A stretch of 64,000 bases of DNA from Dehalococcoidia bacterium (GCA_965249115.1 CBDFLI010000002.1:153859-217858), one strand, 5' to 3'. Positions 23,455-55,365 are shown, numbered from the stretch's first letter. Notes: generated by a model not told the origin, from the sequence alone. Numbers and translations: made by a program.

Positions 23455-23455
23455 C

Positions 23456-23695: not shown

Positions 23696-23749
23696 GTCGG
23701 TTACCCGTCACTCATTGAATAGGCAATAGGCGATAAACCGAACGCGAAG

Positions 23750-25192: not shown

Positions 25193-25196
25193 TCAC

Positions 25197-26501: not shown

Positions 26502-26502
26502 C

Positions 26503-27807
26503 GTGACGATGGCTCAGACCATATCGGACAAACTGAAAAAATCCGTTGGAGGTCCCAGGGACGAGGACCTGTACAAGTGCGTCCATTGCGGCCTGTGTCT
26601 CAACGCGTGTCCAACGTACCTGGAAACGGGCCTGGAGACGGAGTCCCCCAGGGGGCGCATCGCGCTGATGAAGGCGGTGCGAGAGGAACGGGTGGGGCTG
26701 ACGCCTCGTGTGGTGTCCCATATGGACATGTGCCTGCAGTGCCGGGCGTGCGAGGTGGTATGTCCTTCGGGGGTGCCGTTTGGTCGGTTGATGGAGGCGA
26801 CGCGAGGACAAATTACGGACCAGCGCAAAGCCCCGCTGTTGCGCCGCCTTGCGCTGAGGCTGGCGTTTCGACACTTGCTACCGCATCCACGAAGACTGTA
26901 TGCCCTGGGTGCCGTGGTGCGGCTGTATCAGCGAACGCCGTTGTGGCGGCTGATGCGACGGTTCCCCGGAGTGTTGGGACGGCTGAACAGGCAGCTGCCG
27001 GTTCTACCGGGGGGCTTCTTCAGACCTTCACCAGGGGCGTATGCGGCTGAAGGTGCCGTGAGGGCCAGGGTGGGAGTGCTGTCGGGGTGTGTAATGGCGC
27101 TGTCCCACGGGCCGACCATGGAAGCGGTGGTGCGGGTCCTGGCGCGCAACGGTTGCCAGGTGGTTGTTCCTGTTGGTCAGGCGTGCTGCGGCGCGTTGAA
27201 CGTCCACGGTGGCGACAGGACACGGGCGCAGGAGATGGCACGTCGCAACATAGACGTTTTCCTGGAGCAGGGTGTGGACGCTGTTATCGTGGCCTCGGCG
27301 GGATGCGGCTCGGCGATGAAAGAGTACGGCGGTCTCCTGGAGGACGACCCCGAGTATGCCGAAAAGACGGAGCGGTTTGGCTCCCTGGTGAAGGACGTGA
27401 CCGAGTTCCTGGTTGACCTACCCTTCACGCCACCGAAGGGTCGCGTTCCCGTGCGGGTGACCTATCAGGACCCGTGCCATCTGGCCCACGCCCAGCGCAT
27501 AACCGAGGCGCCCAGGCAGCTGCTGAGGGCGATCCCCGGGCTTGACCTGGTGGAGATGGAGAGCTCCGGCCAGTGCTGCGGGGCCGCTGGACTGTACGGC
27601 TCGCTCCAGCCGGAGATGTCGCGACGACTGATGGAGAGGAAGGTGGCGTCGGTGGTGGATACGGAGGCAGAGGTGATGGCTACGGCCAACCCCGGTTGCG
27701 CGCTTCAGATAGAGATGGGGCTGAAGGCGGCGGAAAGCGGGACCCGGGTGCGCTACGTGGTGGACCTGCTGGATGAGTCGTACCAGCGGGAGAGAAGTGA
27801 TAGATGA
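26503..27807 (+). CDS. glcF: glycolate oxidase iron-sulfur subunit GlcF
   Basis: CVHCGLCLNACPTY and CLQCRACEVVCPSG ferredoxin motifs, plus two CCG domains (ACCG, QCCG). Confidence 0.9.
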   Translation: MTMAQTISDKLKKSVGGPRDEDLYKCVHCGLCLNACPTYLETGLETESPRGRIALMKAVREERVGLTPRVVSHMDMCLQCRACEVVCPSGVPFGRLMEATRGQITDQRKAPLLRRLALRLAFRHLLPHPRRLYALGAVVRLYQRTPLWRLMRRFPGVLGRLNRQLPVLPGGFFRPSPGAYAAEGAVRARVGVLSGCVMALSHGPTMEAVVRVLARNGCQVVVPVGQACCGALNVHGGDRTRAQEMARRNIDVFLEQGVDAVIVASAGCGSAMKEYGGLLEDDPEYAEKTERFGSLVKDVTEFLVDLPFTPPKGRVPVRVTYQDPCHLAHAQRITEAPRQLLRAIPGLDLVEMESSGQCCGAAGLYGSLQPEMSRRLMERKVASVVDTEAEVMATANPGCALQIEMGLKAAESGTRVRYVVDLLDESYQRERSDR

Positions 27808-27834
27808 GAATTTGTAGATATGTGTGCGAGCCAG

Positions 27835-28214
27835 TTAGAAATCTTCTTCAGTTATAACCGCGGAATTGTCGTAATAGGCGTGAATGACTTTGGCATGGTC
27901 CCCTACGAGTCGTACAGCAAAGGCGTGAATGCGTTTATTATGATTCCCAAAATACTCAGGTAGATGATGTTGCTCAGAATCTATATTTACAAAAATCCCT
28001 AGGTTGTAATTCAACATATTAAACATCTCTTCCAGTTTGTCGAAATCCTCCCTCGCCTCGTTCTTTGAGGCCATTCTTTTCAAAGCATAAGTGGCGAGGT
28101 TATTCTCTGTTACTAATCCTCCATGATGCTCTTGGGGAATATGAATAACGATGTCGGGCCTTTGATTAAGATGATGCCTGCTACTCTTTTGATATTCCTG
28201 CTCTGCTAACTCAA
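27835..28214 (-). pseudogene. 3' part of a small AT-rich gene disrupted by the IS
   Basis: It joins in frame to 29520..29675 once the IS and one copy of the CTCAA duplication are removed, giving a 176-aa ORF. Confidence 0.7.
28210..28214. repeat. target-site duplication CTCAA (left)
   Basis: Identical pentamer at 29520..29524, immediately outside the IS inverted repeats. Confidence 0.7.
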
Positions 28215-35424: not shown

Positions 35425-35769
35425 TCACGCCTCGACGACCATGGACTCCGGGTCGAGCATGGCCACGAGGTCCTTAAGCACGAGGTTGACCGCGTGCTCC
35501 TGGAGGATACCGACGTTGCGGTAGGAGGTAAGGTAGTACTTGAAGGACTTCAGCTCGACAAGGCGGTTGCGCGGACGGTAGGTGACGACGAGGCGTCCGA
35601 AGTCGGGGAGGCCGGTCCAGGGGCAGACGGAGGTGAACTCTACCGTCTCGTAGGTCACGTCGGTAGCGGAACCCGGGTAGTCATACGGGATGTGCTCCAG
35701 GACCTGGGTGTCAACGCTGGTGGCGTCCTCGACGTCGTACCTGCGGCTAGTGTACTTATCGGTAAGCAT
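35425..35769 (-). CDS. queF: NADPH-dependent 7-cyano-7-deazaguanine (preQ0) reductase, unimodular type
   Basis: VEFTSVCPWTGLPDFGRLVVTYRP and the QueF motif region ELKSFKYYLTSYRN. ATG at 35769 follows AGGAG and matches the promoter position. Confidence 0.85.
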   Translation of the reverse strand: MLTDKYTSRRYDVEDATSVDTQVLEHIPYDYPGSATDVTYETVEFTSVCPWTGLPDFGRLVVTYRPRNRLVELKSFKYYLTSYRNVGILQEHAVNLVLKDLVAMLDPESMVVEA

Positions 35770-35797
35770 ACGCGCTCCTGAAGGGAGGTTGGTGCCC

Positions 35798-35826
35798 AGT
35801 ATAGCACCTTTGAGGTTAGGCACAAA
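35798..35826 (-). promoter_or_regulatory. queF promoter (extended -10)
   Basis: Minus strand TTTGTG, 17 nt, TATACT, preceded by GTGC. Confidence 0.4.
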
Positions 35827-35899
35827 ACGTGTGGATTTTAATGGACGCTATGTTCTAATAATGTACCTGGCGGCGTAGAACAACATGGACTGGGTGTAT

Positions 35900-35944
35900 C
35901 TTTTAATCCGCGTGTCGTGGGTTCGAATCCCATACGGTCCACCA
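35900..35944 (+). pseudogene. orphan 3' half of a tRNA-Lys(UUU) gene (anticodon loop to CCA)
   Basis: CTTTTAA anticodon loop, TCCGC, GTGTC variable loop, GTGGG-TTCGAAT-CCCAT T-arm, ACGGTCC acceptor strand, A, CCA. The upstream sequence cannot form the anticodon stem, D-arm or acceptor 5' strand. Confidence 0.6.
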
Positions 35945-35983
35945 GACTTGACAAAATCAAGAACTTTCACCTTACGGTTCGTT

Positions 35984-37734: not shown

Positions 37735-38607
37735 CTACCCTAGCACCCCTTGGCGGCCTCTGAGTTGTCCCGTCAGGGCAATCCAAGCGCACAGAACTCC
37801 TAACGGAATCCACCCGAGGATGCCTACATAGCTCACAAAGATCCAGTTCGGCCCACCCGTAAAGAGCAACAGCGTCAGGCTCCCGCCGATGGCGTTGGTG
37901 GCTGAATGTGCCAGACTGGCCGACCAGATACTTCCCGTCCTCACGCGGAGCCACCCAAAGATGATGGACAGCATTATCGTGCTGACTGTGAAGACGAACA
38001 TTCCTAGCATAGGCTGGTCAGGGAAATTGTAGCCCCGCAGGTTGATTGGAAGATGCCATAATCCCCATATGACGCCTGTTACGACGGCAGCCAGCATTGG
38101 TCGATGACCCAGCAATCGAACTTGGAGGTAACCGCGCCAGCCGAATTCCTCACCCAACAGGATTGGGGTAGCCATCAACGCAGTGATCATGAGCTGGAAG
38201 GGCAGTATGGCGAAGAGGCCAGTAGGAAGAGAAGGGGGTGTAGTACCCTCTGGTGTCAGTTGCCTCAGAGCACGGTCCAGAGTAAAATCCGGGTCGCTTA
38301 TCCCTAGGGCTACAGCTAGGAGTACAATCACCGAGACCACCAGGTGGGGCAAGGACCAGCCGGCAAGATAGTAGCGCCATCGATCTATGTTCAATCTTAG
38401 CCCTGCATCCGCAAACCCCTCCCGAGTAACCCACTTCCTCACAATGATCGCCGCGACGGCTGGTGAAAGGGCTCCGGGTAGGATGGCAAGTTGGAACAGG
38501 GGGTTTTCGGCCGACACGCCCATCCGAAGTGCAATCTCCCAAAGGACCCAGGCCAGTCCGAAGGTGATCAAGAGGTATGTGACGACGCCTTTCTTGTTGG
38601 TATCCAA
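37735..38607 (-). CDS. CPBP-family intramembrane glutamic endopeptidase (CAAX protease / Abi family)
   Basis: EEFGWRGYL motif 1, WGLWHLP motif 2, SLAHSATN motif 3. Multi-TM. Confidence 0.85.
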   Translation of the reverse strand: MDTNKKGVVTYLLITFGLAWVLWEIALRMGVSAENPLFQLAILPGALSPAVAAIIVRKWVTREGFADAGLRLNIDRWRYYLAGWSLPHLVVSVIVLLAVALGISDPDFTLDRALRQLTPEGTTPPSLPTGLFAILPFQLMITALMATPILLGEEFGWRGYLQVRLLGHRPMLAAVVTGVIWGLWHLPINLRGYNFPDQPMLGMFVFTVSTIMLSIIFGWLRVRTGSIWSASLAHSATNAIGGSLTLLLFTGGPNWIFVSYVGILGWIPLGVLCAWIALTGQLRGRQGVLG

Positions 38608-38714: not shown

Positions 38715-41700
38715 TCAAGCAGCCGCCCACCCGTGTGACAGCACCTCCGCCTGCTCCAGAACGGTCTGAGTGGCTTTCTCCTGCTTGTCTGGCGGGTAGC
38801 CGTGCTTGCGCAGGATGTGCCTGACCAGCACGCGGAGTTGAGCGCGGACGTTCTCCCGCAGCGTCCAGTCGATGGTGACGTTCTTTCGCACTGTGTCGAC
38901 CAGTTCGCGGGCAATGGCGCGGAGCGTCTCATCTCCGAGCACCTGGACGGCGCTGTCGTTGGTCTCCAGGGCGTCGTAAAAGGCCAGCTCGTCCTCCGAC
39001 AGGCCCAGCTTCTCGCCGCGAGCGCTGGCCTCCCGCATCTCCTTGGCCAGCTCTATTAGCTCCTCGATCACCTGCGCCGCCTCGATAGCCCTGTTCTGGT
39101 ATCTCCGCAGCGTCTGCTCCAGCAACTCGGCGAAGGAGCGAGCCTGCACAACGTTCTTCCGCCGTCTAGCGGAGACCTCCCCCTTCAATAGCTTCTGGAG
39201 TAACTCCACAGCCAGGTTGCGATGGGGCATACTCTGCACTTCGGCCAGGAATTCGTCCGACAATACCGAGATGTCCGGCTTGTCCAGCCCTGCTGCTGCG
39301 AAGATGTCCATCACCCCCTCAGAGGCCACGGCGCGGGATATGATTTGGCGCACGGCATGATCCATGTCCTCTTCCGTCCGCGACTCTCCGATGGCGCTCT
39401 TGGACAGCACCGACTGCACCGCCTGGAAGAAACCCACGTCGTCCCTGATGCGCATGGTCTCCTCATGGGGGACAGCCAAGGCGAAGGCTTGGGACAGCTC
39501 TCTCACGATGCCTACACAGCGCTCTTTGCCGTTCTCCTGGGCCAGGATATGCTCCTGAGCGGCCGGCAGCAGTCCCACCCGTTCCGTAGCAGTGCCTGTG
39601 GTCCACTTGGACCAGTCGAAGCCGTGGAAGAGGACGCAGCACACCTCGTACTTCTCCAGCATCACCGCCACCGCCTCCTCCTGGTCGATGGCGGTCTGTC
39701 CTGTGCCCCCGCTCTTGGTGTAGGTCGCTAGGGCCAGCTTGAGGTCCTGGGCAAGGCCGAGGTAGTCCACCACAAGGCCGCCGGGCTTGTCCTTGAACAC
39801 CCGGTTGACCCGGGCGATGGCCTGCATCAGCCCGTGCCCCCGCATCGGCTTGTCCACGTACATGGTGTGCAGACTGGGAGCATCGAAGCCGGTCAGCCAC
39901 ATGTCCCGCACCAATACGACGCGGAAGGGGTCGTCGTGGCGCCGGAAGCGGTTGCCTAGGGCCTCCCTTCGAGGCTTGTTCCTGATGTGAGGCTGCCAGT
40001 CCAGCGGGTCTGTGGCCGAACCGGTCATCACCACCTTCATGGCTCCGTCGTCGTCACCGTCGCTGTGCCAGTCGGGGCGCAGCTTCGCCAGCTCTCGGTA
40101 GAGATCGATGCAGATGCGTCGGCTCATGCACACCACCATCGCCTTGCCTTCCAGGGCTTCCATGCGCTGCTCGTAGTGGTTGACAATGTCCTGGGCCACC
40201 TGCTTGAGACGTTTCTCAGCCCCGACCACGGCCTCCAGTTGCGCCCACTTGGTCTTGAGCTTCTCCCTGCGCTCTATCTCCTCGCCCTCGGTGGCCTCAT
40301 CGAACTCAGGGTCGATGGTCGGCTTCTCGCCCTCGACGAGGGCCAGCTTGGCCAAGCGGCTCTCGTAGTAGATGGGCACGGTAGCCCCGTCCTCAACGGC
40401 CTTCTGTATGTCGTAGATGCTGATGTAGTCCCCGAACACTGCCCTTGTGTTGGCATCCTGAAGCTCGATGGGCGTGCCGGTGAAGCCGACGAACGATGCG
40501 TTGGGCAGGGCGTCCCGCATGTGACGGGCAAACCCATCCACGAAGTCGTACTGGCTCCGATGGGCCTCATCGGCAATGACCACAACGTTGCGCCGGTCCG
40601 ATAGGGAGGGATGGGTATCCCCATTCGCCTCCGGGAAGAACTTCTGGATCGTGGTGAACACCACGCCTCCGGACTGCACCGAGAGCTTGCTGCGAAGGTC
40701 GGCCCTATTCTCCGCCTGCGCCGGCGGCTGGCGCAGCAGGTCCCGGCAACGAGAGAAGGTGCCGAAGAGCTGGTCGTCCAGGTCGTTGCGGTCGGTGAGA
40801 ACGACTATGGTCGGGTTCTCCATGACTGGCTCGCGGATGATGACTCCTGCGTAGAAGGCCATGGTCAGGCTCTTGCCCGACCCCTGGGTGTGCCAGACAA
40901 CGCCGATGCGATGGTCACCCGGCGCGCCACCCGGTTTACGGCCAGCCTCATACCGTCCCCATTCATCGGCAACCTGCGGGGCAGCTCGCTGCAGCTCGGC
41001 GGCCCTTAGCGTCTCGTCGACGGCTACTTGCACGGCGTGAAACTGGTGATAGCCCGCCATCTTCTTGATGAGCGCGCCGCTGCCGTCGTCCTCGAACACG
41101 ATGAAGTCTCGGATCATCTGGAGGAAACGTGAGGTTGCGCAGACGCCCTCCAGCATCACCTGAAGCTCGGTCATGTTGGGGTCGGCCAGGGTCTCCCCGG
41201 TGATGGTGCGCCAGGGCTTGAACCACTCTGTGCCCGTCGTCAGGGCGCCGATGCGCGACTGGGTACCGTCCGAGACCATGAGCATCTCGTTCATGGAGAA
41301 GAGGTTCGATAGCTCGGCCTTGTAGGTCTGGAGCTGCTGCCAGGCCGTCCAGATGGTGGCGTCCTCGTCCGCCGGGTTCTTGAGCTCGATGATGCAAAGG
41401 GGCAGGCCGTTGACGAAGAGCGCCACGTCAGGCCGGCGGTTGTACTTGTTCTCGGTGACGGTGAACTGGTTGACGGCCAGCCAGTCGTTGTTGGATGGGT
41501 CATCGAAGTCGACGGCGCGGGCCTGTGCGCCGCGGATGTCGCCGTCGGCGGTGCGATACTCCACCGTCACGCCGTCGACCAGCATGCGATGGAAGGCGCG
41601 ATTGCGGGCCTCCAGGGTCGGCCCCTCCGGGTGGGTCAGCTTACGAAGGGCGTCGTCCACCGCAGTGGTGGGTAGGTCCGGGTTCAGCTCAGCGAGGGCG

Positions 41701-41858
41701 TCCCGCAGCCGACGCTCCAGCACCACCTCGTCGTAGCTGGCGCGCTCGGCATTGGGCGCGTCTGGCACAATGTCCGGTCCATGGGCCACCTGCCAGCCCA
41801 GGCCCGAAAGCCACTCCAGCGCCGCCGCCTCAACAGTGGACTCGTAGATGGTGGTCAT
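38715..41858 (-). CDS. hsdR: Type I restriction enzyme R subunit
   Basis: 1047 aa. HsdR-N nuclease region ([16 protein letters not shown]), helicase motif I ([11 protein letters not shown]), DEAH ([10 protein letters not shown]), C-terminal helical domain. Confidence 0.95.
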
Positions 41859-42715
41859 GGGGTTTCCACAGCGGGTTCCTGGATGCTTTTCAAGGAGCGC
41901 CCGTTCTCATCCTTCCATTCGACCCGTCCGTTACTGGTCCTTCCCAGCAGGACACCAGATGCGGTGGATGGTGAGTTGAAGACGTAGTCCTGGATAAGGC
42001 GGTATGCAGCGCTGTCGTCCTCCAGAAGCCCCTGAGAAAGGAGGGCCTTCCGGAGATTGGAGAGGTAAGCATGGATCGAAGCAACCTCTTTCTTGACGAA
42101 CTGCGAGCCGGACCTTACGACAAAGCCTCCCGCCCCTTCGTAACCGCGCGCTCTTATGCCTTTGGCGCTCAGAAAGAGGTCTTTGCTCTTCTCCCCTTGG
42201 GTTCGAGGCTTATCGAAGAAGCTCACCCCAACAATCGGAAGGCACAACAGCATGTCGGCAAGATACAGCTCGGCATCCGCAGCGTCCGCATCCGAGAGGG
42301 AAGGGAGCTGGGGAACATTCCCATTGTCCAGCTCACAACGCTTGGCCTCGGCTGCAAGTCCTACAAGCCGGGCTTCGATATGCTGGACGTGGGCTTTGTT
42401 CAGGTTCTGGTCTTTGCTGGTGAAGGCGACGCCATGGGTCCAGAAGTCCTTACTCTTGGCATGGCTGTCAAGTCGGGGTAAGAGTGAGTCCCCTTCACCC
42501 ACGTATGCACGCGCAAGTTGCCCTGACTCGCCGGGACCCCACAGGATGTACACCCCAGTACGTGTGAGCTCCTCCCGACCTCTCGCCTCCGAGTAGAGTG
42601 AACGCGGGAAGGAGAGCCCCTGGCCCGTCCAATTCGACTTCTCGATGACGCGTAGACCCTCCGGCTCCCCGGTGGGGATGAAGATGCGTACCGAGAATCC
42701 TAGCGCTTCGCCCAC
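41855..42715 (-). CDS. GIY-YIG nuclease domain plus DUF4357 protein
   Basis: GVYILWG...[14 protein letters not shown]...HIEARL (GIY-YIG). C-terminal ..[30 protein letters not shown] (DUF4357-like). GTG start abuts the stop of the hsdR fragment. Its stop overlaps the hsdR ATG (ATGA). Confidence 0.8.
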
Positions 42716-42847
42716 TTAAAGTGTCTCCTTTGTATTGGCTGGGATATGTTCAGGCGCGATGTCCGGCCGGTAGGCCGTCCGCCAGCCCAGAACGCACAGC
42801 CACTCCAGCGCCGCTTCTTCGACTATGGACTCCGTGATGGTGGTCAT
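42716..42847 (-). pseudogene. fossil 5' end of a second hsdR (43 codons)
   Basis: MTTITESIVEEAALEWLCVLGWRTAYRPDIAPE.. against the hsdR N-terminus [33 protein letters not shown]... About 100 nt at roughly 70-75% nucleotide identity to 41761..41858. Confidence 0.75.
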
Positions 42848-42874
42848 GGGGCCTCAATGGGAGTGAACGGCCGT

Positions 42875-43747
42875 TCAAGGCCGCGTCAAACTTCCCATGA
42901 TGTCTTTAACCTCTGTAAGCAATCCATCCATTGTCAATAACACTTCCTTACCTGCTCCCGCCCAATTTAACTCCGATAGCGCATAGTCGCGCGCGTTGGC
43001 AGGAAGATCATTCAGTCGCCCATAAGCTGTAGCCTCATTATCTGCGAATCGGACGGATACCTCGAAGGTAGGCTCGCACGGCGCATCGGCCGGTGTGATT
43101 TCTAAGAACACGTTGCCGTACGCTAATGGTCGGAGAAATCCACGCGCGGACACAGGCGGCTTTGTTGGCGCTACCCATTCATCTAGTTCCAGGTTAATGT
43201 CTCCTACCCCAACAGCAAGGATGTTAGGGTACCGATGCCGATCAACGTTGCTCAAATGGCGTAGTAACGGCAAACGAAATCCGATTAGACCATGCTCCTG
43301 ATAGGGCTGGAGAGTCCTAATCCTGGTCTTGGTAGCTTCTTGCAAACCTTGCATCTGTTGCTGTGAGTGATCTTTCTCGAATTCTTTCTTCGTCCCACAG
43401 ATCGGGAACTGGTTTGCGGGTGTGGGATTACCCCCGTCGTTGAGAACTAGTTGGATCAATAGATGATCCAACGATGAACGCAACTGGTAAGCAATACTCC
43501 CCACGGACAGCGCCCAATCCACAGGAACAACGGGCGTTTCGGCACTGAATTTCCACAATTGCTGGTTGGATTGCGTATCGACTTCTTTTGTGAATAGGTC
43601 TTCCTGACGCGTACAAAAGTCCTCAATTTGCCTGCGGAGTAAATCTAGCTCAGTGCCGGCACGCTTAATCTTGCCAATCACACCGTCCAACTGTAACCAG
43701 GGTGCAGTGGTCAAATCATCACTTCGATTCAAGCCACTTGCTATCAA
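42875..43747 (-). CDS. uncharacterised protein embedded in the R-M operon (possible HEPN-like Rx4H motif)
   Basis: 290 aa with lower GC than hsdR. Contains IAYQLRSSLDHLL (R-x4-H) and LLRHLSNVDRHRY. No family recognised with confidence. Confidence 0.55.
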   Translation of the reverse strand: MIASGLNRSDDLTTAPWLQLDGVIGKIKRAGTELDLLRRQIEDFCTRQEDLFTKEVDTQSNQQLWKFSAETPVVPVDWALSVGSIAYQLRSSLDHLLIQLVLNDGGNPTPANQFPICGTKKEFEKDHSQQQMQGLQEATKTRIRTLQPYQEHGLIGFRLPLLRHLSNVDRHRYPNILAVGVGDINLELDEWVAPTKPPVSARGFLRPLAYGNVFLEITPADAPCEPTFEVSVRFADNEATAYGRLNDLPANARDYALSELNWAGAGKEVLLTMDGLLTEVKDIMGSLTRP

Positions 43748-45020
43748 TCATCCGAATCTCCCCCGACACCAGCTTGGGCAGCAGCGTGTCGCGGAGGGCG
43801 GCTAGGCAGTGGGACTCATGCGTTGTTGCTAGTATCCTATCAATTGCTGGTCGGATTGCCTTGGTAAACGCCTCGGTTACCACCAGGTTAGGGAGAACGA
43901 TCTGATAACGAGCCATGTCGGGCCAACTGGTGCGAGGCATCTTTGTTCCCGTCGAGCTGGCATCAGTGTAGTAGACGAATTCTTGGCTTGATACATGGCT
44001 TAGAAGGAAGCCAAACCATCCCTCTGACACTGGTGCGATCACTACAATGTCAGTTGAACACACTCCGTCTAGAGGTGCGACGCCAACCTTGTGGAAGTAT
44101 GGGCGTAGCTTTCCAAACAAGATGTCACCCCGCTGAAATCTAAACTTGCCACTAGCCAAGCCATCTGCCGCATCCCATTCTGAGAGTGCGATGCAGCGCT
44201 TGGGCATGTGCTCAAGTGCAATGTATGGTGTTCCCTCAGTGATTTCACTCGGTTTCACTCCGAGCCTCCGGTGTCTTCCTACATCCCCCAGGGTCCTCAC
44301 CTCCCACCCCTCCGGGATCTCCCCCAGCTCCGAGGGAACGAGCCGGTCGGGGAAGAGGTCGTAGTGTTCGGCGGGGAGGCCGGGGAGGGACTTGCCTGGA
44401 CGCCACCGACCGTCCATCTTGGCACGCACCGCGTCGAAGTCCACGAACCAGGACTTGAACAACGCCCGCGCCATCTCCTCCAGCGTCTCGTTCATCCGCC
44501 GGTTCAGCTCAATCTTGTCGTCCAGCGTCCCCAGGATGTGGGCAATGGCCCGCTGTTCGGGGAGGGGTGGCCGTGGCAAGATAACTTTTCGAAGCTCACT
44601 CTGCTTGATGCCGAGAACTGTAGTTCCTGTTGCTCTTGAACGCAGTTGCTCCTGCACTCCGTTCGACTGCATCAAGAACTTCAAGAAATTGTTATTCAAC
44701 ACTCCGGGCTTTGCACGTAGGCAGATAAGCCTCTGAGCCAATGCGACGCGTTCGTTTCCGAGCTGAGCAACTTCTCCCAGCGGCGCTTCCATTGTTACCA
44801 CCACATCGCCGCACTCAGGAACGCCACGCCGCATCCAGTCAACGTAGTCCTCTTCCGCAATAAACTCGTCGGGGGTCTCGATCCGACCGCCTTTGACGAT
44901 CTTGGCGGTTATCAATGGGATACCAGATGGCGTCTTCCTCGGCGTCTTTCCTCGATAGTCGATGACGGCGCCCATGGAATCCTCCAGAGTTAGCTCCTCC
45001 CACTCAGCCTCCATAGCCAA
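43719..45020 (-). CDS. hsdS: Type I R-M specificity subunit (two target-recognition domains)
   Basis: 433 aa. Duplicated TRD plus conserved helical spacers ([46 protein letters not shown]; ..[17 protein letters not shown]). Confidence 0.9.
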
Positions 45021-46593
45021 GCCCCTTCAAGTTCGCCTCTATCGCGGCGTCCAGCCTGGCAGCTTCGGCCTGCTGCTCCCGCCATTGGGCGGTGAGACGC
45101 GCCATCTTCTCCTCGAACGGCTCGCCCTCGTCCTCCTGCGGCTCCGCGCCGACGTAGCGGCCGGGGGTGAGGACGTGGCCGTGCTTGCGCACCTCATCCA
45201 GCGATGCGCTCTTGCAGAAGCCGGGAACGTCAGCGTAGTCGCCCGCGCCATCCTCGCCCCGCCAGGCGTGGTAGGCGCCGGCGATGCGGGCAATATCGTC
45301 TTCGGTCAGCTCACGGTGTGTGCGGTCGATCATGCTTCCCATCTTGCGGGCGTCAATGAAGAGCGTCTCGCCCTGGCGATCGCGGTATCTCCCACCCTTT
45401 CGGTCCCTTGAGAGGAACCAGAGGCAGGCGGGTATCTGGGTGGAGTAGAAGAGCTGGCCCGGCATCGCCACCATGCAGTCCACCAGGTCGGCTTCGATGA
45501 GGCTCTTGCGTATGTCGCCCTCACCGGACTGGTTCGACGACATGGAGCCGTTGGCTAGCACGAAGCCCGCTATGCCGGTGGGCGACAGGTGGTGCGCCAT
45601 GTGCTGGACCCAGGCGAAGTTGGCGTTGCCCTTGGGCGGAGCGCCGTACTGCCAGCGCTTGTCCTCCTGCAGGCGTTCGCCGCCCCAATCGGAGATGTTG
45701 AAGGGTGGATTGGCCAGAATGAAGTCGGCCTTCAGGTCGGGATGGCGGTCGTTGTGGAAGCTGTCGCCGTGGGCAATCTGTCCCTCGATGCCCCGTATCG
45801 CCAGGTTCATCTTGGCCAGCCGCCACGTGGTGTAGTTCGACTCCTGGCCGTAGATGGAGATGTCGCCTCGCGCCCTGCCGCCGTTGCCGTTCCCGCTGGC
45901 GTGGGCGCGGATGAACTCCACCGACTGCACGAACATGCCGGAGGAGCCGCAGCATGGGTCGTAGACTCGGCCCTGGTAGGGTTCCAGCATCTCGACCAGG
46001 AGCTTAACGACACTGCGGGGGGTGTAGAACTCGCCGCCCTTCTTGCCTTCTGCGCTGGCGAACTGGGAGATGAAGTACTCGTAAACCCTGCCCAATACGT
46101 CCTTGGAGCGGGCCTCCTCATCCCCGACCTGGATGTTGCTGATGAGGTCGATGATCTGGCCCAGCCGCTGCTTGTCCAGCGACGGCCGGGCGTAGTCCTT
46201 GGGGAGCACGTCCTTGAGCACGGGGTTATCCCGCTCGATGCCGATCATGGCGTCGTCGACAACCTGGCCGATGGTGGACTGGCGGGCCTGCGCCTTGAGC
46301 TGCGGCCAGCGAGCCTCAAGAGGGGACCAGAAGATATTCTGGGCACGGTACTCGTCCGGGTCCTCGGGGTCTGCGCCCTGGTCGACCGCGGCCTCCAGCT
46401 CAGCGTAGACCTCCTCAAAGGCGTCGGAGATGTACTTGAGGAAGATCAGGCCAAGGACCACGTGCTTGTACTCGGCGGCGTCCATGCTGCCCCGCAGGGC
46501 GTCGGCCATCCGCCACAACTCGGCCTCGTAGCCCGTGGTGGCGCTGTTTGTGTTGGACTGGGTGTTGGGCGGTCTCTGTCGAGATGTTGTCAT
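45004..46593 (-). CDS. hsdM: Type I R-M N6-adenine DNA methyltransferase subunit
   Basis: HsdM-N helical domain. SAM motif [11 protein letters not shown]-like ([12 protein letters not shown]). Catalytic ILANPPFN. Confidence 0.95.
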
Positions 46594-46841
46594 TTGGTAT
46601 CACTCTTACGCTTGCTCTCGGCCCGCCACCTGTCCACTTCGCGTAAGGCGTTCTTGCCCCCTGGTCCGTATCCGTGACGGACCAGGAAGCCGGGGACGCC
46701 GCCGTATTCGACGGAGATAACCGCGGACTCAGCGGTCTTGTCGTGGCCGGGCAGGAAGAACGAGCCGATCGCCGTCTCCGCGCCGCAACCACACCAGCAC
46801 TCGCCAGTCGGTAGCAGGCGTTTCTTTGAAGCCATTCTCAT
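46590..46841 (-). CDS. small Cys/His-containing protein translationally coupled to hsdM
   Basis: 83 aa. [22 protein letters not shown] motif. Its stop overlaps the hsdM ATG (ATGA). Confidence 0.5.
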
Positions 46842-47127: not shown

Positions 47128-48840
47128 ATGCCCCTCACTGACCGACAGCTTCTCGACACCCTCAGCCGGATGCCGTTCATCGACTCTGCGGAGCTGGCAG
47201 GCATCCTGGGCGAGCCTCACGCGACGGTTCACCGCACCCTGACCGGCCTGCTGACCACCGTCATCGTCGGGAGGGTGAGCCACGGCACCGCCCACCTGCC
47301 GTCTAGTCAGAGATACTACCTGACGGCCCAGAGCATCAGACAGGCTGCGGAGTTGCTCGGCTTCGGGACGCCCTCTGACTTCGTGCGGGCCTACCCCGTG
47401 TCGAGGGAGTGGCTGACGCTGCTCATCCGCAGGATGGACGCGGTGGCCGCCGTCTACCGGCTCGCTGCCTCACTCTCCCCCGGAACAGGTTCTCTCCGGT
47501 CGCACGTGGAGTTCCACCGCCGGGGCCGCTTCGACGCCACGATCACCCTCCACGACGGTCGAAGCTTTGGAGTTGTCCGCCAGGGGCTAGCCCTGCGGCG
47601 GCGCTCACTCTACGACCGGCTCAGGGCCATAGCGGAGTACCACTACACGCGCCGCCCCGGCACCGTCCTGATCCTAACGCCTAGCGTCTGGGAGCAGAAG
47701 CTGACGACGAGGTTCTGCATGGAACTGAATCTTGAAGACTCCTACGTCGGCGTGGAGTCTCGGGACACACTGGAAAGACGGGACCTCCACGTCTGGCAGA
47801 AGACGTCAGGCCTGTTCAGCGGCTCGTACTACACCCTCGATTTCGTGAGCTCACAGGGCGGCCCTGGCGGAGCGCTTCATACGGAGTCGCCGGAGCGGAA
47901 GCGGGCCTCGATACCCAACCCTGAGCAGATGATTCAGGCTGCGCCGGCCTTCGGCATCAGCCCGGCTGAGAAGCGGACGCTCGACCTCATCACCGACCAC
48001 CCGATGATCCCCCGCGAGCACCTTGCCCTCTGGCTGGGCGTCTCCGAGGGCCGTGTCAGCCAGATGATGCACAGCCTCGTGAACACCTGGGGCCTGGTCG
48101 AGCGTCGAGGACAACGCAGTCACACCCGCTACACGTTGTCCGCCGAGGGCATTCGCTACGTAACCCACAGGGACCGCGCCCAGCTTCCCACCACGCAAGG
48201 CATCTGGAGCACGGCCTTCACTACCGACCGGCAGGGCCGGAGACGGCACGTGGGCCACCGGATCGACACGTGGGCGCGGCAGACGAAGCACGCAGACGGC
48301 ATCACCTGGTTCCTCGCGCAGTTGGAAGCTGAGACCAGGGAAGATTCTTCGAGCGAGTTGCTGTGGTCGGTCCCCACCGCGAGGTCTGACCGGGCATACA
48401 ACTGGGGCCAGTCTGCCATCGCCCCGGACGCCGTGGGGAAGATGGTCGCAGAGGGCCTTCAGATACCGTTCTACCTCGAGTACGAGCTACGTGCCCGTCA
48501 CCCCGAAGGTGTCCTGGCCCGCCTGAGTCCCTACATGAGCTACTACTGGTCCACCGAGCCCGGCGACGACCAGCCTCCGTTCCCCGTCACGCTCTTCGTA
48601 GTTGACACAGAGGAGGTCGAGGCCACGTACGTGCGCACATCGGCGCGGATGACTCGGATGTCGCTGCCCATTCTCGTGTCGTGCATCCCTGTCCTGTCCA
48701 CCGCAGGAATCCTGGGGCGGTCCTGGCATCCACTGTGGGAGCCGGAGTCTCCGAGACTTCCCCTGTCCGGGCTGAGGGCCTACCAGTGGGACTCGCTCTA
48801 CCACCGGATGCGTCACCGTCCTGTAGAGGGGAATAGATAG
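47128..48840 (+). CDS. replication-relaxation family protein, apparently duplicated (two wHTH plus core modules)
   Basis: Two wHTH-like segments (LTDRQLLDTLSRMPFIDSAELAGILG..; RTLDLITDHPMIPREHLALWLGVSEGRVSQMMHSLV..). C-terminal PDAVGKM...IPFYLEYELRA...LARLSPY resembles the Replic_Relax core. Confidence 0.55.
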   Translation: MPLTDRQLLDTLSRMPFIDSAELAGILGEPHATVHRTLTGLLTTVIVGRVSHGTAHLPSSQRYYLTAQSIRQAAELLGFGTPSDFVRAYPVSREWLTLLIRRMDAVAAVYRLAASLSPGTGSLRSHVEFHRRGRFDATITLHDGRSFGVVRQGLALRRRSLYDRLRAIAEYHYTRRPGTVLILTPSVWEQKLTTRFCMELNLEDSYVGVESRDTLERRDLHVWQKTSGLFSGSYYTLDFVSSQGGPGGALHTESPERKRASIPNPEQMIQAAPAFGISPAEKRTLDLITDHPMIPREHLALWLGVSEGRVSQMMHSLVNTWGLVERRGQRSHTRYTLSAEGIRYVTHRDRAQLPTTQGIWSTAFTTDRQGRRRHVGHRIDTWARQTKHADGITWFLAQLEAETREDSSSELLWSVPTARSDRAYNWGQSAIAPDAVGKMVAEGLQIPFYLEYELRARHPEGVLARLSPYMSYYWSTEPGDDQPPFPVTLFVVDTEEVEATYVRTSARMTRMSLPILVSCIPVLSTAGILGRSWHPLWEPESPRLPLSGLRAYQWDSLYHRMRHRPVEGNR

Positions 48841-49395
48841 GGCCGATACGTCCCTGTCTTCCCGTTATGCTGTCTGGGGGCTGCAAATGGTGCATCTTGG
48901 CCTGTAGGCGAGGTCTTGTGAGGCCACAACCCGCCTGATTTGCCCCTAATTTAGCTACGAAATAGGCCGACAAATCCTCTGACCGGTCAGCGCCCGAAAA
49001 TGCAAATGAATGAAAAGCCACGCTAAACTACATTGCCTCCCCGACGATGACCTGATTGCACTTTTGCAACCCCTGACGCATCATCCGATAGCGAAGAAAC
49101 AGCTATGGTTGAACCTGTCCGGCGGGTCGGCACAGCTGATCCGGGCAGGATTTGGCGTGTCGGCGGCGTCCGCGGCCCAGTGTGGCCCATCGGTTTTGCG
49201 GCGAAACGATGTCGGGATGCGTGACATGATTTTGGGGCATGGGTAGGAACGGACATCCCGGGCCAGCCAGCTAGGGATTCCTGCCACATTTGGAGTGTAC
49301 TGACCGAAATCTGTGAACAGTTCTTGTCCAGGGCTGGTTCCACCGAAAAAGGGATGTGATTGTCAAAGCGGGCCACCCCCCTGTAGAGGACGAAA

Positions 49396-49860
49396 ATGAG
49401 TGACGAACGGGCATCGCGGGCCGACGACAATCAGCCCGACCTCAGATGGGTCGTGGAGTGGCTGGTCGAGCGGGAGGGTCAGCGCCGGACGGCGGCCCTT
49501 CTGGGAGTGAACCGGAAGACGGTGGCGCTGGCCCTGCGCCGTGAGCGACTGACGGGCAGGATGACTCTGGCCGTGCAGCGGCTCATGGCCAACCTGGACG
49601 ACCCCGGATGGGAGAGAACGACGCCACTGGACCGGCTGGAGGCGAGGATGAGGCTGGCGAATGAAGCCGTGGACGATCTGGCGAGGGTGGTGGAGCGTCT
49701 GACCCGTCGCGTGGAGGTCCTGGAGGCGGCTCGGCAACCCGAAGACGACGCCGGGGGCCGGGAGTCGGCGGATGCTCACGACGCCGAGGGGCGGGGCCTG
49801 CGTCTGTTCAACTGGAGACGGAGGCGTCAGTCACAGGGCGAGGAAAAGAGTGATGGATGA
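49396..49860 (+). CDS. hypothetical HTH-like / coiled-coil protein
   Basis: QRRTAALLGVNRKTVALALRRERL looks like an HTH. Its end overlaps the next gene by 8 nt. Confidence 0.5.
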   Translation: MSDERASRADDNQPDLRWVVEWLVEREGQRRTAALLGVNRKTVALALRRERLTGRMTLAVQRLMANLDDPGWERTTPLDRLEARMRLANEAVDDLARVVERLTRRVEVLEAARQPEDDAGGRESADAHDAEGRGLRLFNWRRRRQSQGEEKSDG

Positions 49861-50287
49861 GCGTGTGCGCTGGGTGACGAAAGCGGAGGCGGCGCGAGAG
49901 ATGGAGATATCCCTGTCCACTCTCGACCGGAGGATCAGGAGGGGGGAGATCGAGGTTCGCAGGGAGGGACGCTGGGTCCACGTGCGGATGGAGGGGCCGG
50001 AGTACGTGGGCGACGACGAGCTGCTGCGTCGATCCCTTGGTCGGGAGGACAAGCTTCAGCGGACGGTATGGGAGTTGGATAGGACAGTCACGGAGTTGGA
50101 GCGGGAGCGAGACGAGGCCAGGGAAGCGGCGTTAGCCAGCAGACAGGCGCATAAGGAGCTTGAGGAGGCGTACCGGAAGGAGCTGGCAGTCCACGGGAGG
50201 ACGAGACGCTTGACTATCAGGATCGGCTTGGCCGTGGTCGCGCTGCTCGTCATCTGCGGTCTGCTCACGTGGCGGCTGCTGGCGTAG
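49853..50287 (+). CDS. excisionase-type (MerR/HTH_17-like) DNA-binding protein with a coiled coil and a C-terminal transmembrane anchor
   Basis: WVTKAEAAREMEISLSTLDRRIRRGEIEVRREGRWVHV (Xis-like wHTH), a charged heptad region, then RRLTIRIGLAVVALLVICGLLTWRLLA at the C-terminus. Confidence 0.6.
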   Translation: MDERVRWVTKAEAAREMEISLSTLDRRIRRGEIEVRREGRWVHVRMEGPEYVGDDELLRRSLGREDKLQRTVWELDRTVTELERERDEAREAALASRQAHKELEEAYRKELAVHGRTRRLTIRIGLAVVALLVICGLLTWRLLA

Positions 50288-50299
50288 CCAATTAGTCTA

Positions 50300-51058
50300 A
50301 TGGCAATCATAAACATAGGCATTGTCATACTCATGGGGTTGCTGATCTTGTCTGTCAGCAGTGGCCTATTGAAACCTGAGCCCATAGCACCACGGGCATT
50401 GATCTTGAGTGCTTGGAACTATCTGAAATCTGGCCCTGTCTCTTTGGCTTTTGCCATACTGATCGTCGCCGTCGAAGTGGCTGTTGTTGCTACTGGGACT
50501 AAGGAGCAGCTTAGATCGGAATTCGGACTGCCCAACGACAACGCTTGGGCCTATTTCGTATACGCCTTTCTACACCACGACATCACGCACCTTCTGGAGA
50601 ACGCAGGAGCGCTGTTGATATGCGGGGGAATTATCGAGGGGAGGATGAAAAGCCGATGGCTTTTGGTTTTGGCAGCTTTGTTTATACCTCTGGGGGGCTA
50701 CCTTGCTACATTGACCGCTCCGGTGTTCATTGATTCTCCCTGGACTGGCGATCTTCCTTCCGTGGGGTTTAGCATTGTCGATTACGCCGTTCTTGCCCTA
50801 TGTTCATTCTTCGTCATTGACTTTGTCCTGAAGGAGCGATTTTTCAGGTTAGCTTCTGAGAGGCGAAAGAGGCTGTTAGGTACAGCGATAGTAACGCTGT
50901 ACCTCTTGTGCTCTTTCATCTCCGGCGTCAGCGATGGCCCTGGGGAATCAATCTTGGGGCATTCCATTGGAATAGCACTAGGAACAGTAGCGGTAGGGAC
51001 TTGGTGGGTTGTGCATCGCCCGCGCCCACCTTCGGCGTTAGGCATGTCGGTTCTATAG
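50300..51058 (+). CDS. rhomboid-family intramembrane serine protease
   Basis: FLHHDITHLLENAGALLICGGIIEGRMKS (HxxxN, like GlpG MHILFN..GGAVEKRLGS). VGFSIVDY (GxSx catalytic Ser). ILGHSIGIALG (catalytic His). Confidence 0.7.
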   Translation: MAIINIGIVILMGLLILSVSSGLLKPEPIAPRALILSAWNYLKSGPVSLAFAILIVAVEVAVVATGTKEQLRSEFGLPNDNAWAYFVYAFLHHDITHLLENAGALLICGGIIEGRMKSRWLLVLAALFIPLGGYLATLTAPVFIDSPWTGDLPSVGFSIVDYAVLALCSFFVIDFVLKERFFRLASERRKRLLGTAIVTLYLLCSFISGVSDGPGESILGHSIGIALGTVAVGTWWVVHRPRPPSALGMSVL

Positions 51059-51124
51059 GTTGCCTGCCGGGAGTCCCTTGACAACTGGGCAGGGGATCAT
51101 TGATGATGTAGAGTAAGACAGCTT

Positions 51125-51355
51125 ATGACCAACAGGTTCATCAACAGGAACACCAAGACGATTACGTTCTCCCTGCCGCCTGAGATGGCCGAGCAGGTGC
51201 AGGACGTCATGCGTGAGGAGGGCCGCACCATGAGCGAGCTCATCAGAGAGGCCCTCCGCAACTACATGGAAGAGCGGGAGTGGCTCAGGACCATCCGGTA
51301 CGAGAGACTCCGAGCTCGTCATGCCGAACAGGAAGATTCAAGGAGGACAAAATGA
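51125..51355 (+). CDS. ribbon-helix-helix (CopG-like) protein
   Basis: TKTITFSLPPEMAEQVQDVMREEGRTMSELIREALRNYM. Its stop overlaps the recombinase ATG by 4 nt. Confidence 0.75.
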   Translation: MTNRFINRNTKTITFSLPPEMAEQVQDVMREEGRTMSELIREALRNYMEEREWLRTIRYERLRARHAEQEDSRRTK

Positions 51356-52971
51356 AGGAACAACTACAGCCACTAACCCCGGCGGCGCTCTACGCCAGGG
51401 TCTCCAGCGAGCGGCAGGACGTGGACCTGTCCGTGTCCGCCCAGCTCAGGGCGCTCAAGGACTACGCCAAGGCCAACGGCTACTCCGTCGCCAGAGAGTA
51501 CGTGGACGAGGCCGAGAGCGGACGCGTCGCCGACAGGCCCCAGTTCAGGGAGATGATCGAGGAGGGGAGCCAGCCAAAGGCCCCGTTCCAGGTCATCTTG
51601 GTCTGGAAATTCTCCCGCTTCACCAGAAAGCGGGAGCACGCTGTGGCGTTCAAGTCGATGCTCCGGCGCAAAGGTGTGAGGGTCGTCTCCATCACCGAAC
51701 ACGCCGACGACTCCCCCACCGGCAAGCTCATGGAGGCCATCATCGAGTCCGTGGACGAATTTTACAGCGAAAATCTTGCCCAGGAGGTCGTCCGGGGAAT
51801 GAGGGAGGCCGCTTCGAGAGGCTTCTTCCTCGGCTCCAAGGCCCCCTTCGGCTACAGGCGGGTGAAGGTCAGCGACGGAGCCAAGGAGCGTCCCACCCTG
51901 GAGGTTGACCCTGCCACCGCTCCAATAGTGAAGGAGATATTCGAGAGCTCGCTCAGCGGCTACGGCCTCAAGGAGATATGCAGGACCCTGAACGACCGGG
52001 GCATCACCAACAGGGGCAAACGCTGGTACAAGGGAGGACTCCACTACCTGCTGACCAACGAGGCGTACACCGGCACAGCCGTGTGGGGCCGCACGTCGAA
52101 GGGAGAGAAGGCTCAGGACCCGGTGCGTGTTGAGGGAGCGTGGCCCGCCCTGGTATCCAGAGAGCTGTTCGTTGCCGTGCAGCAGGCGATGCGAGACCGT
52201 GCGCCGAAGGTGCAGAGGCCAGCCAGAGTAGGAAGCAAGTTCCTGCTGAGCGGTTTGCTCAAGTGCGGTGTGTGCGGCAGGCCCTACAGAGCCCAGGGAG
52301 CCAAGAGCGGACAGTACGGTTACTACATTTGCGGCACCCTGTTCACGGAGGGCGCGGGTACGTGCACCGCCCGATACCTGAACGCCCCCAGGCTGGAGGC
52401 GTTCGTAGTGGAGAAGATCAGGGAGCGCATTCTCACCGAGGAGACCATCGTCGAGCTGGTGACGATGGTGGCTGAGGAGATCGACGCCATGGCCGGGGAG
52501 TTGTCGGGTAGGCTGGAGGTCATCGAGGCGGAGCTATCGGACGTGAGGAAGCGGCTCGAGAAGCTCTACGAGGCCATTGAGACCAGCGAGCTGACGTTGG
52601 AGGTCCTGTCGCCCCGCATCCTGTCTCTGAGGCACCGCGAGGAGCAGCTGGAGGCTGCGCGAGACGATGCCGAGCGCCAGCTTGAACAGCGCAGGGTGGA
52701 GCTGCCGACCACGGAGGAGATCAAGGAGTATGTAGCGGACTTCCGAGACTTCCTGGAGGAAGGGACTATCCCCGAGTGCAAGGCGCTCATCCGCAACTTC
52801 GTGGAGGGCATCGAGGTCAACGGAGACGAGGCCGTGCTGACGTACACCATCCCCATGCCGAACGATGGTGTGACGTCGGAATCGGCCTCGGTTCTTGATT
52901 TCGTCAAGTCCGGCCCCACCAGCGACATTCGAACCTCTAGTTGCGCATTTACCGAAGACCTTCATCGCTAA
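51352..52971 (+). CDS. large serine recombinase (resolvase domain, recombinase domain, zinc ribbon, coiled coil)
   Basis: ATG follows AGGAGG. AALYARVSSERQD (catalytic Ser); VILVWKFSRFTRK; PFGYRR; CGVCGRPYRAQ...YYICG zinc-ribbon region. Confidence 0.9.
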   Translation: MKEQLQPLTPAALYARVSSERQDVDLSVSAQLRALKDYAKANGYSVAREYVDEAESGRVADRPQFREMIEEGSQPKAPFQVILVWKFSRFTRKREHAVAFKSMLRRKGVRVVSITEHADDSPTGKLMEAIIESVDEFYSENLAQEVVRGMREAASRGFFLGSKAPFGYRRVKVSDGAKERPTLEVDPATAPIVKEIFESSLSGYGLKEICRTLNDRGITNRGKRWYKGGLHYLLTNEAYTGTAVWGRTSKGEKAQDPVRVEGAWPALVSRELFVAVQQAMRDRAPKVQRPARVGSKFLLSGLLKCGVCGRPYRAQGAKSGQYGYYICGTLFTEGAGTCTARYLNAPRLEAFVVEKIRERILTEETIVELVTMVAEEIDAMAGELSGRLEVIEAELSDVRKRLEKLYEAIETSELTLEVLSPRILSLRHREEQLEAARDDAERQLEQRRVELPTTEEIKEYVADFRDFLEEGTIPECKALIRNFVEGIEVNGDEAVLTYTIPMPNDGVTSESASVLDFVKSGPTSDIRTSSCAFTEDLHR

Positions 52972-53772: not shown

Positions 53773-53842
53773 CAGCGCAGTTTCTGGTCGGCCTGGGTAG
53801 AGACAGAAGGCCGTTGCTTTGGTGTGATGACTATACAGGATG

Positions 53843-53902
53843 CGGTGGAGGCCCCAGCTACGTTAGCACAGCGCTAATGCAGAAATGTTCGGTAAGCATC
53901 AG
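53843..53902 (+). repeat. 60-bp imperfect direct repeat, copy 1
   Basis: 45/60 identical to 55242..55301 (CGGTGGAGG....AGCTACGTTAGCAC..GCT...GC....ATG.TCGGTAA.CATC). Confidence 0.6.
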
Positions 53903-55193: not shown

Positions 55194-55241
55194 TGTATTC
55201 CAGAAAGAGAGCGTGATAAGACACGATTATCATGAATGTTT

Positions 55242-55301
55242 CGGTGGAGGTATTAGCTACGTTAGCACGGTGCTCGGGCGTAGATGGTCGGTAATCATCG
55301 G
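55242..55301 (+). repeat. 60-bp imperfect direct repeat, copy 2
   Basis: See 53843..53902. It lies in the leader/promoter region of the rhodanese-CBS gene. Confidence 0.6.
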
Positions 55302-55365
55302 ATCTCCTGAATGGAGGCTGGCGGTCAGCATAGCACCTTTGAGTTGGACTCAACGGGACGGGAGG

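Follow-up and report, generated by a model that had tools for sequence, protein, structure and literature searches.

The subject of this analysis is a stretch of 64,000 nucleotides from a Dehalococcoidia bacterium (GCA_965249115.1 CBDFLI010000002.1:153859-217858), here called the window, and within it a cluster of five genes between positions 49,396 and 52,971 that ends with a large serine recombinase (LSR). The genes encode, in order, a helix-turn-helix (HTH) protein of 154 residues (hth154); a Xis/MerR-like winged-helix protein of 144 residues with a C-terminal transmembrane (TM) anchor (tmHTH144); a rhomboid, or intramembrane serine protease; a ribbon-helix-helix (RHH) protein; and the LSR. 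Their open reading frames (ORFs) are packed closely, with an overlap of 8 nt between hth154 and tmHTH144, a gap of 12 nt ahead of the rhomboid, a gap of 66 nt behind it, and an overlap of 4 nt between RHH and LSR.

An earlier note, made from the sequence alone, had described these genes, and its description holds. All five ORFs are found on the + strand with gaps or overlaps of at most 66 bp, and the gene identities and the tie to an LSR element stand, with clear Pfam matches for the rhomboid, the RHH protein and the LSR. The rhomboid retains HxxxN, the GxS serine and the histidine of TM6, and the second protein is recovered as a Xis/MerR-type winged helix with a C-terminal TM. Three features were overlooked there: a sixth co-directional core gene at 47,128-48,840, which encodes a protein of 570 residues; a conserved non-coding stretch of 555 nt behind it (48,841-49,395); and the placement of the region at the end of a bounded, multi-copy mobile island. 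This island spans ~35.94-52.92 kb, or ~17 kb, with the five genes as its right-end module. It is best read as an integrative, probably mobilizable, LSR island in which the rhomboid is probably accessory cargo, independent of recombination.

A cassette-exchange slot beside the recombinase

A genome scan with one genome per species places the rhomboid in 11 loci, all in metagenome-assembled genomes (MAGs) of Dehalococcoidia; one MAG holds three copies, and two further MAGs hold two each. By DNA comparison, a 5.8-kb block from 47,128 to ~52,921 is common to 10 of the 11 loci, and the flanks differ. Cargo to the left of 47,128 varies among copies, so this position marks the boundary of the module. 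All five genes are under purifying selection, with ratios of nonsynonymous to synonymous substitution (dN/dS) of 0.02-0.48.

About 50 related copies (L001 and onward) were compared overall. Neighbourhoods of the anchored-HTH gene share one architecture: a Replic_Relax gene, an HTH gene of the hth154 kind, the anchored-HTH gene, a slot, an optional RHH gene and the LSR. The position between the tail-anchored Xis-like gene and the RHH-LSR pair, or the LSR alone, is a cassette-exchange slot. It is filled by the rhomboid followed by RHH in the window and in L001-L007, L010, L021 and L022 (the contig of L008 ends after the rhomboid); by a DUF3267 protein of 203 residues followed by RHH and then the LSR in L024-L026; by DUF7662 and PIN proteins, with or without a cytochrome c, in L014-L020 and L037-L042; by a RelE-like and XRE pair in L032, assigned by eye; by a HicB-like pair in L043; and by uncharacterised soluble proteins with HTH_3 in L023. 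Among the slot variants seen, RHH is present solely in the two that carry a protease. The core, on this reading, is made up of hth154, tmHTH144, RHH and LSR, to which the rhomboid is an accessory, being one cassette among several.

The rhomboid is foreign in composition and has recently been swapped between diverged backbones. Its GC content is 51% and its GC content at third codon positions (GC3) is 0.565, against 63-68% and 0.78-0.83 in the neighbouring genes and a GC3 of 0.91 in the codons of the tmHTH144 anchor. The window and L001 copies of the rhomboid are 99.6% identical, at a synonymous divergence (dS) of 0.000, whereas the adjacent genes have diverged to a dS of 0.35-0.60. The near-identical block covers ~50,190-51,150 in this pair and begins only at the rhomboid in the L004 pair. 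Low GC3, absent divergence beside diverged neighbours, and differing breakpoints together identify the rhomboid as a cassette that recently moved between backbones. The rhomboid family keeps a GC3 of 0.48-0.57 in every context (window, L009, L011, L012 and L013), even beside genes with a GC3 of 0.80-0.85, so recent arrival alone does not explain the composition.

Further searches define the reach of the family. Metagenomes scanned with a DNA pattern of the right end gave 10 short loci, of which L032 and L027 are informative. The module, the 570-residue protein and the rhomboid are without a match among PLSDB plasmids at the DNA or protein level. Two copies in one MAG bear kilobase-scale insertions (L007, 8700-12660; L008, 5327-8000), one between rhomboid and RHH and the other in the 3' end of the anchored-HTH gene, where it removes the TM.

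The proteases and the anchored Xis-like protein

The rhomboid matches PF01694 with 45.7 bits (cut-off 22.6). H97xxxN101, G156-F-S158 and H221 are invariant in an alignment of 26 family members, and the serine motif reads GFS-I rather than GxSG. In its AlphaFold2 (AF2) model (pLDDT 74.8), the best 22 PDB matches are all GlpG, at a probability of 1.00 and a TM-score (target) of 0.53-0.68. The dN/dS of the gene is 0.27-0.48, and its family comprises 43 clusters. Compared with GlpG, AarA and YqgP, the island rhomboid is alike in Pfam domain, HxxxN, GxS serine, TM6 histidine, predicted GlpG-like fold and canonical orientation. It differs from them in an extra N-terminal TM, a short L1 loop, GFS in place of GxSG, carriage by mobile elements and a steady low GC3, and it is just 20-25% identical to GlpG.

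The orientation follows from the distribution of lysine and arginine. Along the AF2 helices, 15 of these residues fall in loops whose GlpG counterparts are cytoplasmic and 2 in the remaining loops; the medians over the 26 homologues are the same. The extra N-terminal TM therefore puts the N-terminus outside, and the core is canonical with its active site at the outer leaflet. A PARL-like (1+6) inversion of the core by the extra TM, which would have resolved the topology mismatch discussed below, is rejected on this positive-inside count.

tmHTH144 falls below the excisionase thresholds (HTH_17 17.4 bits, cut-off 27; TIGR01764 14.4 bits, cut-off 28.8). Its AF2 model (pLDDT 85) is a beta-alpha-alpha-beta-beta winged helix followed by one unbroken helix over residues 54-143. 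The winged helix superposes on Xis of mycobacteriophage Pukovnik at 0.7 Å over 40 columns, with a probability of 0.99-1.0 and a weak Foldseek E-value of ~0.4; BldC and RdfS also match, again with weak E-values. RacA likewise joins a MerR/Xis-like winged helix to a long coiled coil, and its DNA complex is a weak fold match at rank 47. RacA, however, is chromosomal, binds DivIVA and has no TM of its own, and the likeness is a lead only. Hydropathy places a single TM at the C-terminus of tmHTH144, with RTRR ahead of it and just RLLA behind; the N-terminus is therefore inside. The anchor comes in two sequence variants, each of which occurs with protease and with toxin-antitoxin (TA) cassettes. The anchored-HTH family counts 1556 homologous clusters, and the 120 matches listed all have E-values of at most 7e-56 and at least 71% identity over the aligned part. 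A profile of the family has no PDB sequence match, and scans of JGI metagenomes and of IMG/VR with its alignment gave no confirmed relative.

For hth154 the HTH assignment is weak by sequence (HTH_28, 15.5 bits, under the Pfam cut-off); its dN/dS is 0.26-0.38, and the gene is also found in sister elements. The RHH protein matches RHH_1 with 37.2 bits (cut-off 20.5), has a dN/dS of ~0.05 and resembles RelB/CopG antitoxins at a score under the cut-off. A consensus promoter and terminator scan finds one promoter-like site in the gap between rhomboid and RHH, with counts at chance level that make it uninformative.

Distribution and topology both separate the rhomboid from the anchored protein. Because the anchored HTH counts 1556 clusters against 43 for the rhomboid, and because the slot is variable, the two assort independently and lack the co-occurrence expected of a pair in regulated intramembrane proteolysis (RIP). 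At 75% identity and below, rhomboids have neither an intact anchored HTH nor an LSR: relatives at 65% and ~40% identity lie in other mobile or defence contexts (L009, L011-L013), and in L051, on a contig of 2x coverage, an intact rhomboid stands beside a truncated HTH remnant. As for topology, rhomboids prefer type I/III substrates with the N-terminus outside (PMC7232013). The rhomboid core here is canonical and tmHTH144 is N-in with 4 residues outside, a mismatch of substrate orientation and protease class. On these models, cleavage at the outer leaflet would not free the DNA-binding domain, which would still carry most of the TM.

The second protease of the slot belongs to another class. DUF3267 (PF11667) was recently shown to be an intramembrane metalloprotease of the S2P clan, TmcP, with a TM precursor as its substrate (PMC13252029; bioRxiv 10.64898/2026.05.31.729130). 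The family comprises 165 clusters, and the L024 protein has HEGVH within a hydrophobic segment. Read by hand, its putative active-site residues (HExxH and a distal Asp) would lie near the cytoplasmic face, which would suit an N-in anchor. Homologues at 55% and 62% identity sit outside such elements, and DUF3267 therefore also looks captured. In L044-L049 the 55%-identical gene occupies a conserved housekeeping neighbourhood (der, plsY, gpsA, M16 peptidase and mgtE), whereas the 62%-identical one has other neighbours. The housekeeping gene is the likely source of the element-borne copy, and its product is possibly a host protease.

Island ends and remaining contents

The coordinates of the island features are collected in Table 1.

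Table 1. Features of the island and its junctions, in window coordinates.
Feature	Position	Strand	Remarks
Left junction flank (attL, host side)	35919-35943	+	tRNA-like 3' fragment GGTTCGAATCCCATACGGTCCACCA; CCACCAG common with right junction
Left inverted-repeat arm (P' arm)	35945-35964	+	GACTTGACAAAATCAAGAAC
HNH / His-Me endonuclease-motif protein, 522 aa	36111-37679	+	HNH_3 22.1 bits, under cut-off; PADLOC HEase E 0.002
CPBP / Rce1-like polytopic membrane protease	37735-38607	-	PF02517 67.6 bits; six hydrophobic segments
Type I restriction-modification (R-M) system	38715-46593	-	Pfam
hsdR	38715-41858	-	Pfam
DUF4357/PDC-S14 candidate defence gene	41855-42715	-	between hsdR and hsdS; PADLOC PDC-S14 322 bits
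290-aa ORF, function unassigned	42875-43747	-	between PDC-S14 gene and hsdS in R-M region
hsdS	43719-45020	-	Pfam
hsdM	45004-46593	-	Pfam
Small conserved ORF, 83 aa (p83)	46590-46841	-	upstream of hsdM; 94% identical in L001; no Pfam family
Core 570-aa winged-HTH protein, candidate MOB_C-type relaxase (Replic_Relax / PD-(D/E)XK)	47128-48840	+	relatives pass PF13814
Conserved non-coding region, candidate origin of transfer (oriT) or regulatory	48841-49395 (555 nt)	.	DNA conserved across loci
hth154	49396-49860	+	core gene; weak HTH, then helical, then acidic/basic tail
tmHTH144	49853-50287	+	core gene; Xis/MerR-like winged helix, long helix, C-terminal TM anchor
Rhomboid	50300-51058	+	accessory cassette; intramembrane serine protease with extra N-terminal TM
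RHH (CopG/Arc-like)	51125-51355	+	translationally coupled to LSR
LSR	51352-52971	+	Pfam and NCBIfam
Right inverted-repeat arm (P arm) and crossover region	52891-52921	+	arm GTTCTTGATTTCGTCAAGTC, crossover CGGCCCCACCA

The LSR carries Resolvase (115.5 bits), Recombinase (85.9 bits) and Zn_ribbon_recom (57.8 bits) domains, and its N-terminal sequence around the catalytic serine is readable as ALYARVSSERQD. Its best NCBIfam match is CcrB, at 163 bits, far under the cut-off of that family. The island ends in an inverted repeat of 20-23 nt, the 23-nt arms at 35,942-35,964 and 52,891-52,913 being 91% complementary, and a CCACCAG core is present at both junctions. On the right, more than 20 loci show a razor-sharp boundary: ...GTTCTTGATTTCGTCAAGTCCGGCCC(C)ACCA is followed by unrelated sequence, with similarity ending at ~52,921. 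Because this end falls inside the LSR ORF, near its 3' terminus, the final ~17 LSR codons lie beyond the island and vary among copies. A second left end of this kind, in L050, has the same arm with GGCCCACCA ahead of it. The circular junction expected for the excised island reads ...GTCAAGTCCGGCCCCACCAGACTTGACAAAATC..., and the expected empty site ...GGTTCGAATCCCATACGGTCCACCAGCGACATTCGAACC...; no empty attachment site was found.

The host side of the left junction bears a tRNA-like 3' fragment, GGTTCGAATCC...CCA, and the motif TCGAACC occurs 7-8 nt past the junction in several related right flanks. The target half-sites therefore look like T-loop motifs. Insertion into an intact tRNA gene was considered and rejected, since ARAGORN and Rfam call neither a tRNA nor a tmRNA at the ends of the island, nor any other Rfam family; just the tRNA-like 3' fragment and T-loop-like motifs are present there. 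A tRNA-like minihelix of 58 nt abuts the left end (35,868-35,943), with 6 of 7 acceptor-stem pairs, a GTGGG/TTCGAAT/CCCAT T-arm and a CCA end, and may be a remnant of the target. Three intergenic copies of a repeat of ~60-130 nt, 71-80% identical, flank the island on both sides (35,759-35,814, 53,826-53,900 and 55,225-55,343); the repeat has no Rfam match.

Many copies meet a second element family at their right junction. In L002, L004, L005, L007, L010, L014, L019 and L020, the right island end adjoins the 3' end of a second, convergent RHH-LSR pair, whose LSR has 643 residues and is 54-60% identical. In L004 and L005 this pair lies within a Replic_Relax-RHH-LSR element that has neither the HTH pair nor the rhomboid, and the flank at the junction forms a palindrome with a left flank of L050. 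It appears that each of these two island families inserts into attachment sites of the other.

The 570-residue core protein is a candidate relaxase. Its window copy registers only MarR_2 (25.3 bits) and does not reach the threshold of PF13814, which is passed at 35 bits (cut-off 25.3) by the L014 homologue (~81% DNA identity where aligned) and by a 31% relative in L009, where the PF13814 gene comes after one for a TrwB-type coupling protein. PF13814 has a PD-(D/E)XK fold (PMC3424549) and is the MobC, not the MOB_L, relaxase class in streptococcal integrative mobilizable elements (IMEs) (PMC5357655). A PDB sequence search gave no match for the 570-residue protein. In the conserved 555 nt behind its gene there is no strong hairpin, and an ORF of 78 codons (49,010-49,246) is rejected as a gene because stop codons break it in most relatives.

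To the left of the core module lies the variable cargo, including the R-M system; hsdM and p83 are also upstream of the core module in L001 and L037-L041. The island ORFs scanned include no secretion genes, which fits a mobilizable rather than self-transmissible element. Outside the island, the interval 23,000-28,000 has a GC content of 0.60-0.65, a GC skew of +0.15-0.27 and three adjacent + strand ORFs of 480, 434 and 434 residues.

The island resembles LSR-driven elements such as Tn4451/Tn4453 and SCCmec, and the IMEs with Rel_PF13814/MobC relaxases, in having the LSR at one end, a relaxase-type gene without a secretion apparatus, variable cargo and multiple copies, and in the best NCBIfam match of its LSR, CcrB. 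It differs in its host, a Dehalococcoidia; in a core that adds a tail-anchored Xis-like protein and a second HTH protein; in a crossover inside the 3' end of the LSR gene and a defined cassette slot beside it; and in lacking a plasmid match in PLSDB.

What the rhomboid may do

The account that fits the observations best, and is probably correct, treats the rhomboid as cargo of a mobilizable island. In it, the LSR would integrate and excise the island, and the RHH protein, whose gene overlaps that of the LSR, would regulate the recombinase or give it direction. The Replic_Relax-like protein would nick oriT, probably within the 555-nt non-coding stretch, and a helper conjugative element would mobilise the island, which is probably mobilizable. 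hth154 and tmHTH144 would be core regulators or tethers, tmHTH144 possibly linking DNA to the membrane; both would work membrane-bound with no protease of their own, since most elements lack one. The rhomboid itself would be an active, outward-facing protease; its targets would be membrane proteins of the host, of phages or of other elements whose N-terminus is extracytoplasmic. As such it would be an accessory trait comparable to the TA and defence cargo of the same slot and island, and no recombination switch.

Several points weigh against the cargo account. Two unrelated intramembrane proteases, the rhomboid and the S2P-clan DUF3267, take the identical slot behind a tail-anchored protein, a notable coincidence that exceeds what random cargo would lead one to expect. 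The rhomboid begins 12 nt past the stop codon of the anchored gene, whereas TA cassettes begin only behind ~560 nt. tmHTH144 is the sole credible single-pass membrane protein encoded by the island, and the block recently exchanged between the window and L001 takes in its anchor codons. The slot survey amounts to ~10 independent variants and is skewed to relatives of the window. Relaxase function and oriT are putative assignments, with a window copy under the PF13814 threshold.

Among the alternatives, it is conceivable, if unlikely, that the protease and RHH form an addiction, abortive-infection or immunity cassette, the protease being the effector and RHH its repressor or antidote. TA-like pairs that include a DNA-binding partner make up at least four of the other slot variants, and the confinement of RHH to the two protease variants and its resemblance to RelB/CopG antitoxins point the same way. 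The island also holds the type I R-M system, the PDC-S14 gene and a CPBP (Abi-type) protease, and selection for low expression could lie behind the steady low GC3 of the rhomboid family. On the other hand, RHH-LSR pairs without the rhomboid or any protease occur in the second element family, and the RHH gene runs 4 nt into the start of the LSR gene, so RHH seems to belong to the recombinase module and not to be specific to the cassette. PADLOC has no match for the rhomboid, DUF3267 or CPBP protease, and no toxicity is known for rhomboids.

A broader proposal, equally doubtful, is that in some members of the island family the tail-anchored Xis-like protein is processed by a captured intramembrane protease, namely the rhomboid in the window and DUF3267 in sister elements. 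Excision or transfer would be switched in this way, and elements that lack a protease would use a host enzyme. The 55%-identical housekeeping DUF3267 is the cited candidate for such an enzyme. If true, this would be a membrane-embedded counterpart of ImmR/ImmA, not described for any recombinase system. In ICEBs1 itself, ImmA is soluble, ImmR is not membrane-anchored, and the pair is conserved as a unit. The island is alike in encoding an HTH regulator with an adjoining protease gene in an integrative element; it differs in that tmHTH144 is anchored in the membrane and is not kept as a unit with the rhomboid.

The narrower form, which builds on the earlier note, has the rhomboid cleave the tmHTH144 anchor, releasing or destroying a Xis-like regulator or directionality factor and so conveying a membrane signal to excision or integration. 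This proteolytic switch is not supported and is improbable. The tight co-directional adjacency of the two genes, the Xis/RdfS/BldC-like N-terminal domain, the single-pass anchor, the S2P-clan protease at the same place in sister elements and the one recombination block that holds both anchor and rhomboid are consistent with it, and ImmR/ImmA of ICEBs1 offers a soluble precedent for protease-controlled induction of an element. The note had named a lack of rhomboid-recombinase adjacency in any related element as one ground for dropping the idea, but at least 12 related copies, spread over six MAGs or more, keep the adjacency, so the idea does not fall on that ground. Yet most anchored-HTH genes have no adjoining protease, relatives of the rhomboid are found where no intact anchored HTH exists, anchor and protease show no co-variation, and the rhomboid is of foreign composition. 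The note had itself cautioned that the topology of the anchor is the opposite of that of classic rhomboid substrates, and this caveat is confirmed and strengthened by the predicted canonical core and the 4 residues outside, an arrangement that would leave the HTH on most of the TM. Independent assortment, foreign composition and topology thus disfavour cleavage of the anchored HTH as a control of recombination.

A further comparison is with S2P-type RIP, of which RseA/RseP is an example. The likeness lies in a single-pass protein with its N-terminus inside encoded beside an intramembrane protease, as with RseA/RseP and TmcP/DUF3267 (PMC13252029), and the protease of the sister variant in L024-L026 is also of the S2P clan. 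By contrast, the window protease is a rhomboid, with the opposite substrate polarity; there is no site-1 protease or sensor domain here, just 4 residues being outside; and the protease is dispensable in most members of the island family.

A role in horizontal transfer, with the protease acting on some membrane or secreted component that mating, exclusion or signalling requires, is very unlikely: in L009 a 65%-identical rhomboid directly follows the coupling-protein and Replic_Relax genes with no LSR in the 8 kb downstream, so the rhomboid travels with a relaxase module in two different element types, but most elements of the family lack a protease, L011-L013 show no transfer genes beside the rhomboid, and no candidate substrate is identified. 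A loose parallel is the S2P protease Eep, which makes peptide pheromones for the MOB_C plasmid pAD1.

The searchable literature yielded no paper on the island family, nor any on rhomboids carried by recombinase elements, and the LSR/MOB_C-type islands of Dehalococcoidia are apparently undescribed. They are unusual in having a tail-anchored Xis-like protein in the core, a crossover within the LSR gene and a slot that has twice recruited intramembrane proteases. Were the minority reading of proteolysis true, a site-specific recombinase element would for the first time be known to be under the control of intramembrane proteolysis, and tmHTH144 would be a natural substrate of a bacterial rhomboid, of which few are known. 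The islands bring to light three membrane-embedded protease families as mobile-element cargo, namely rhomboid, DUF3267 of the S2P clan and CPBP, and they are useful for mining LSRs together with their attachment sites. Dehalococcoidia is a poorly studied, mostly uncultured class, and the mapped ends, the slot and the core protein aid the annotation of its genomes.

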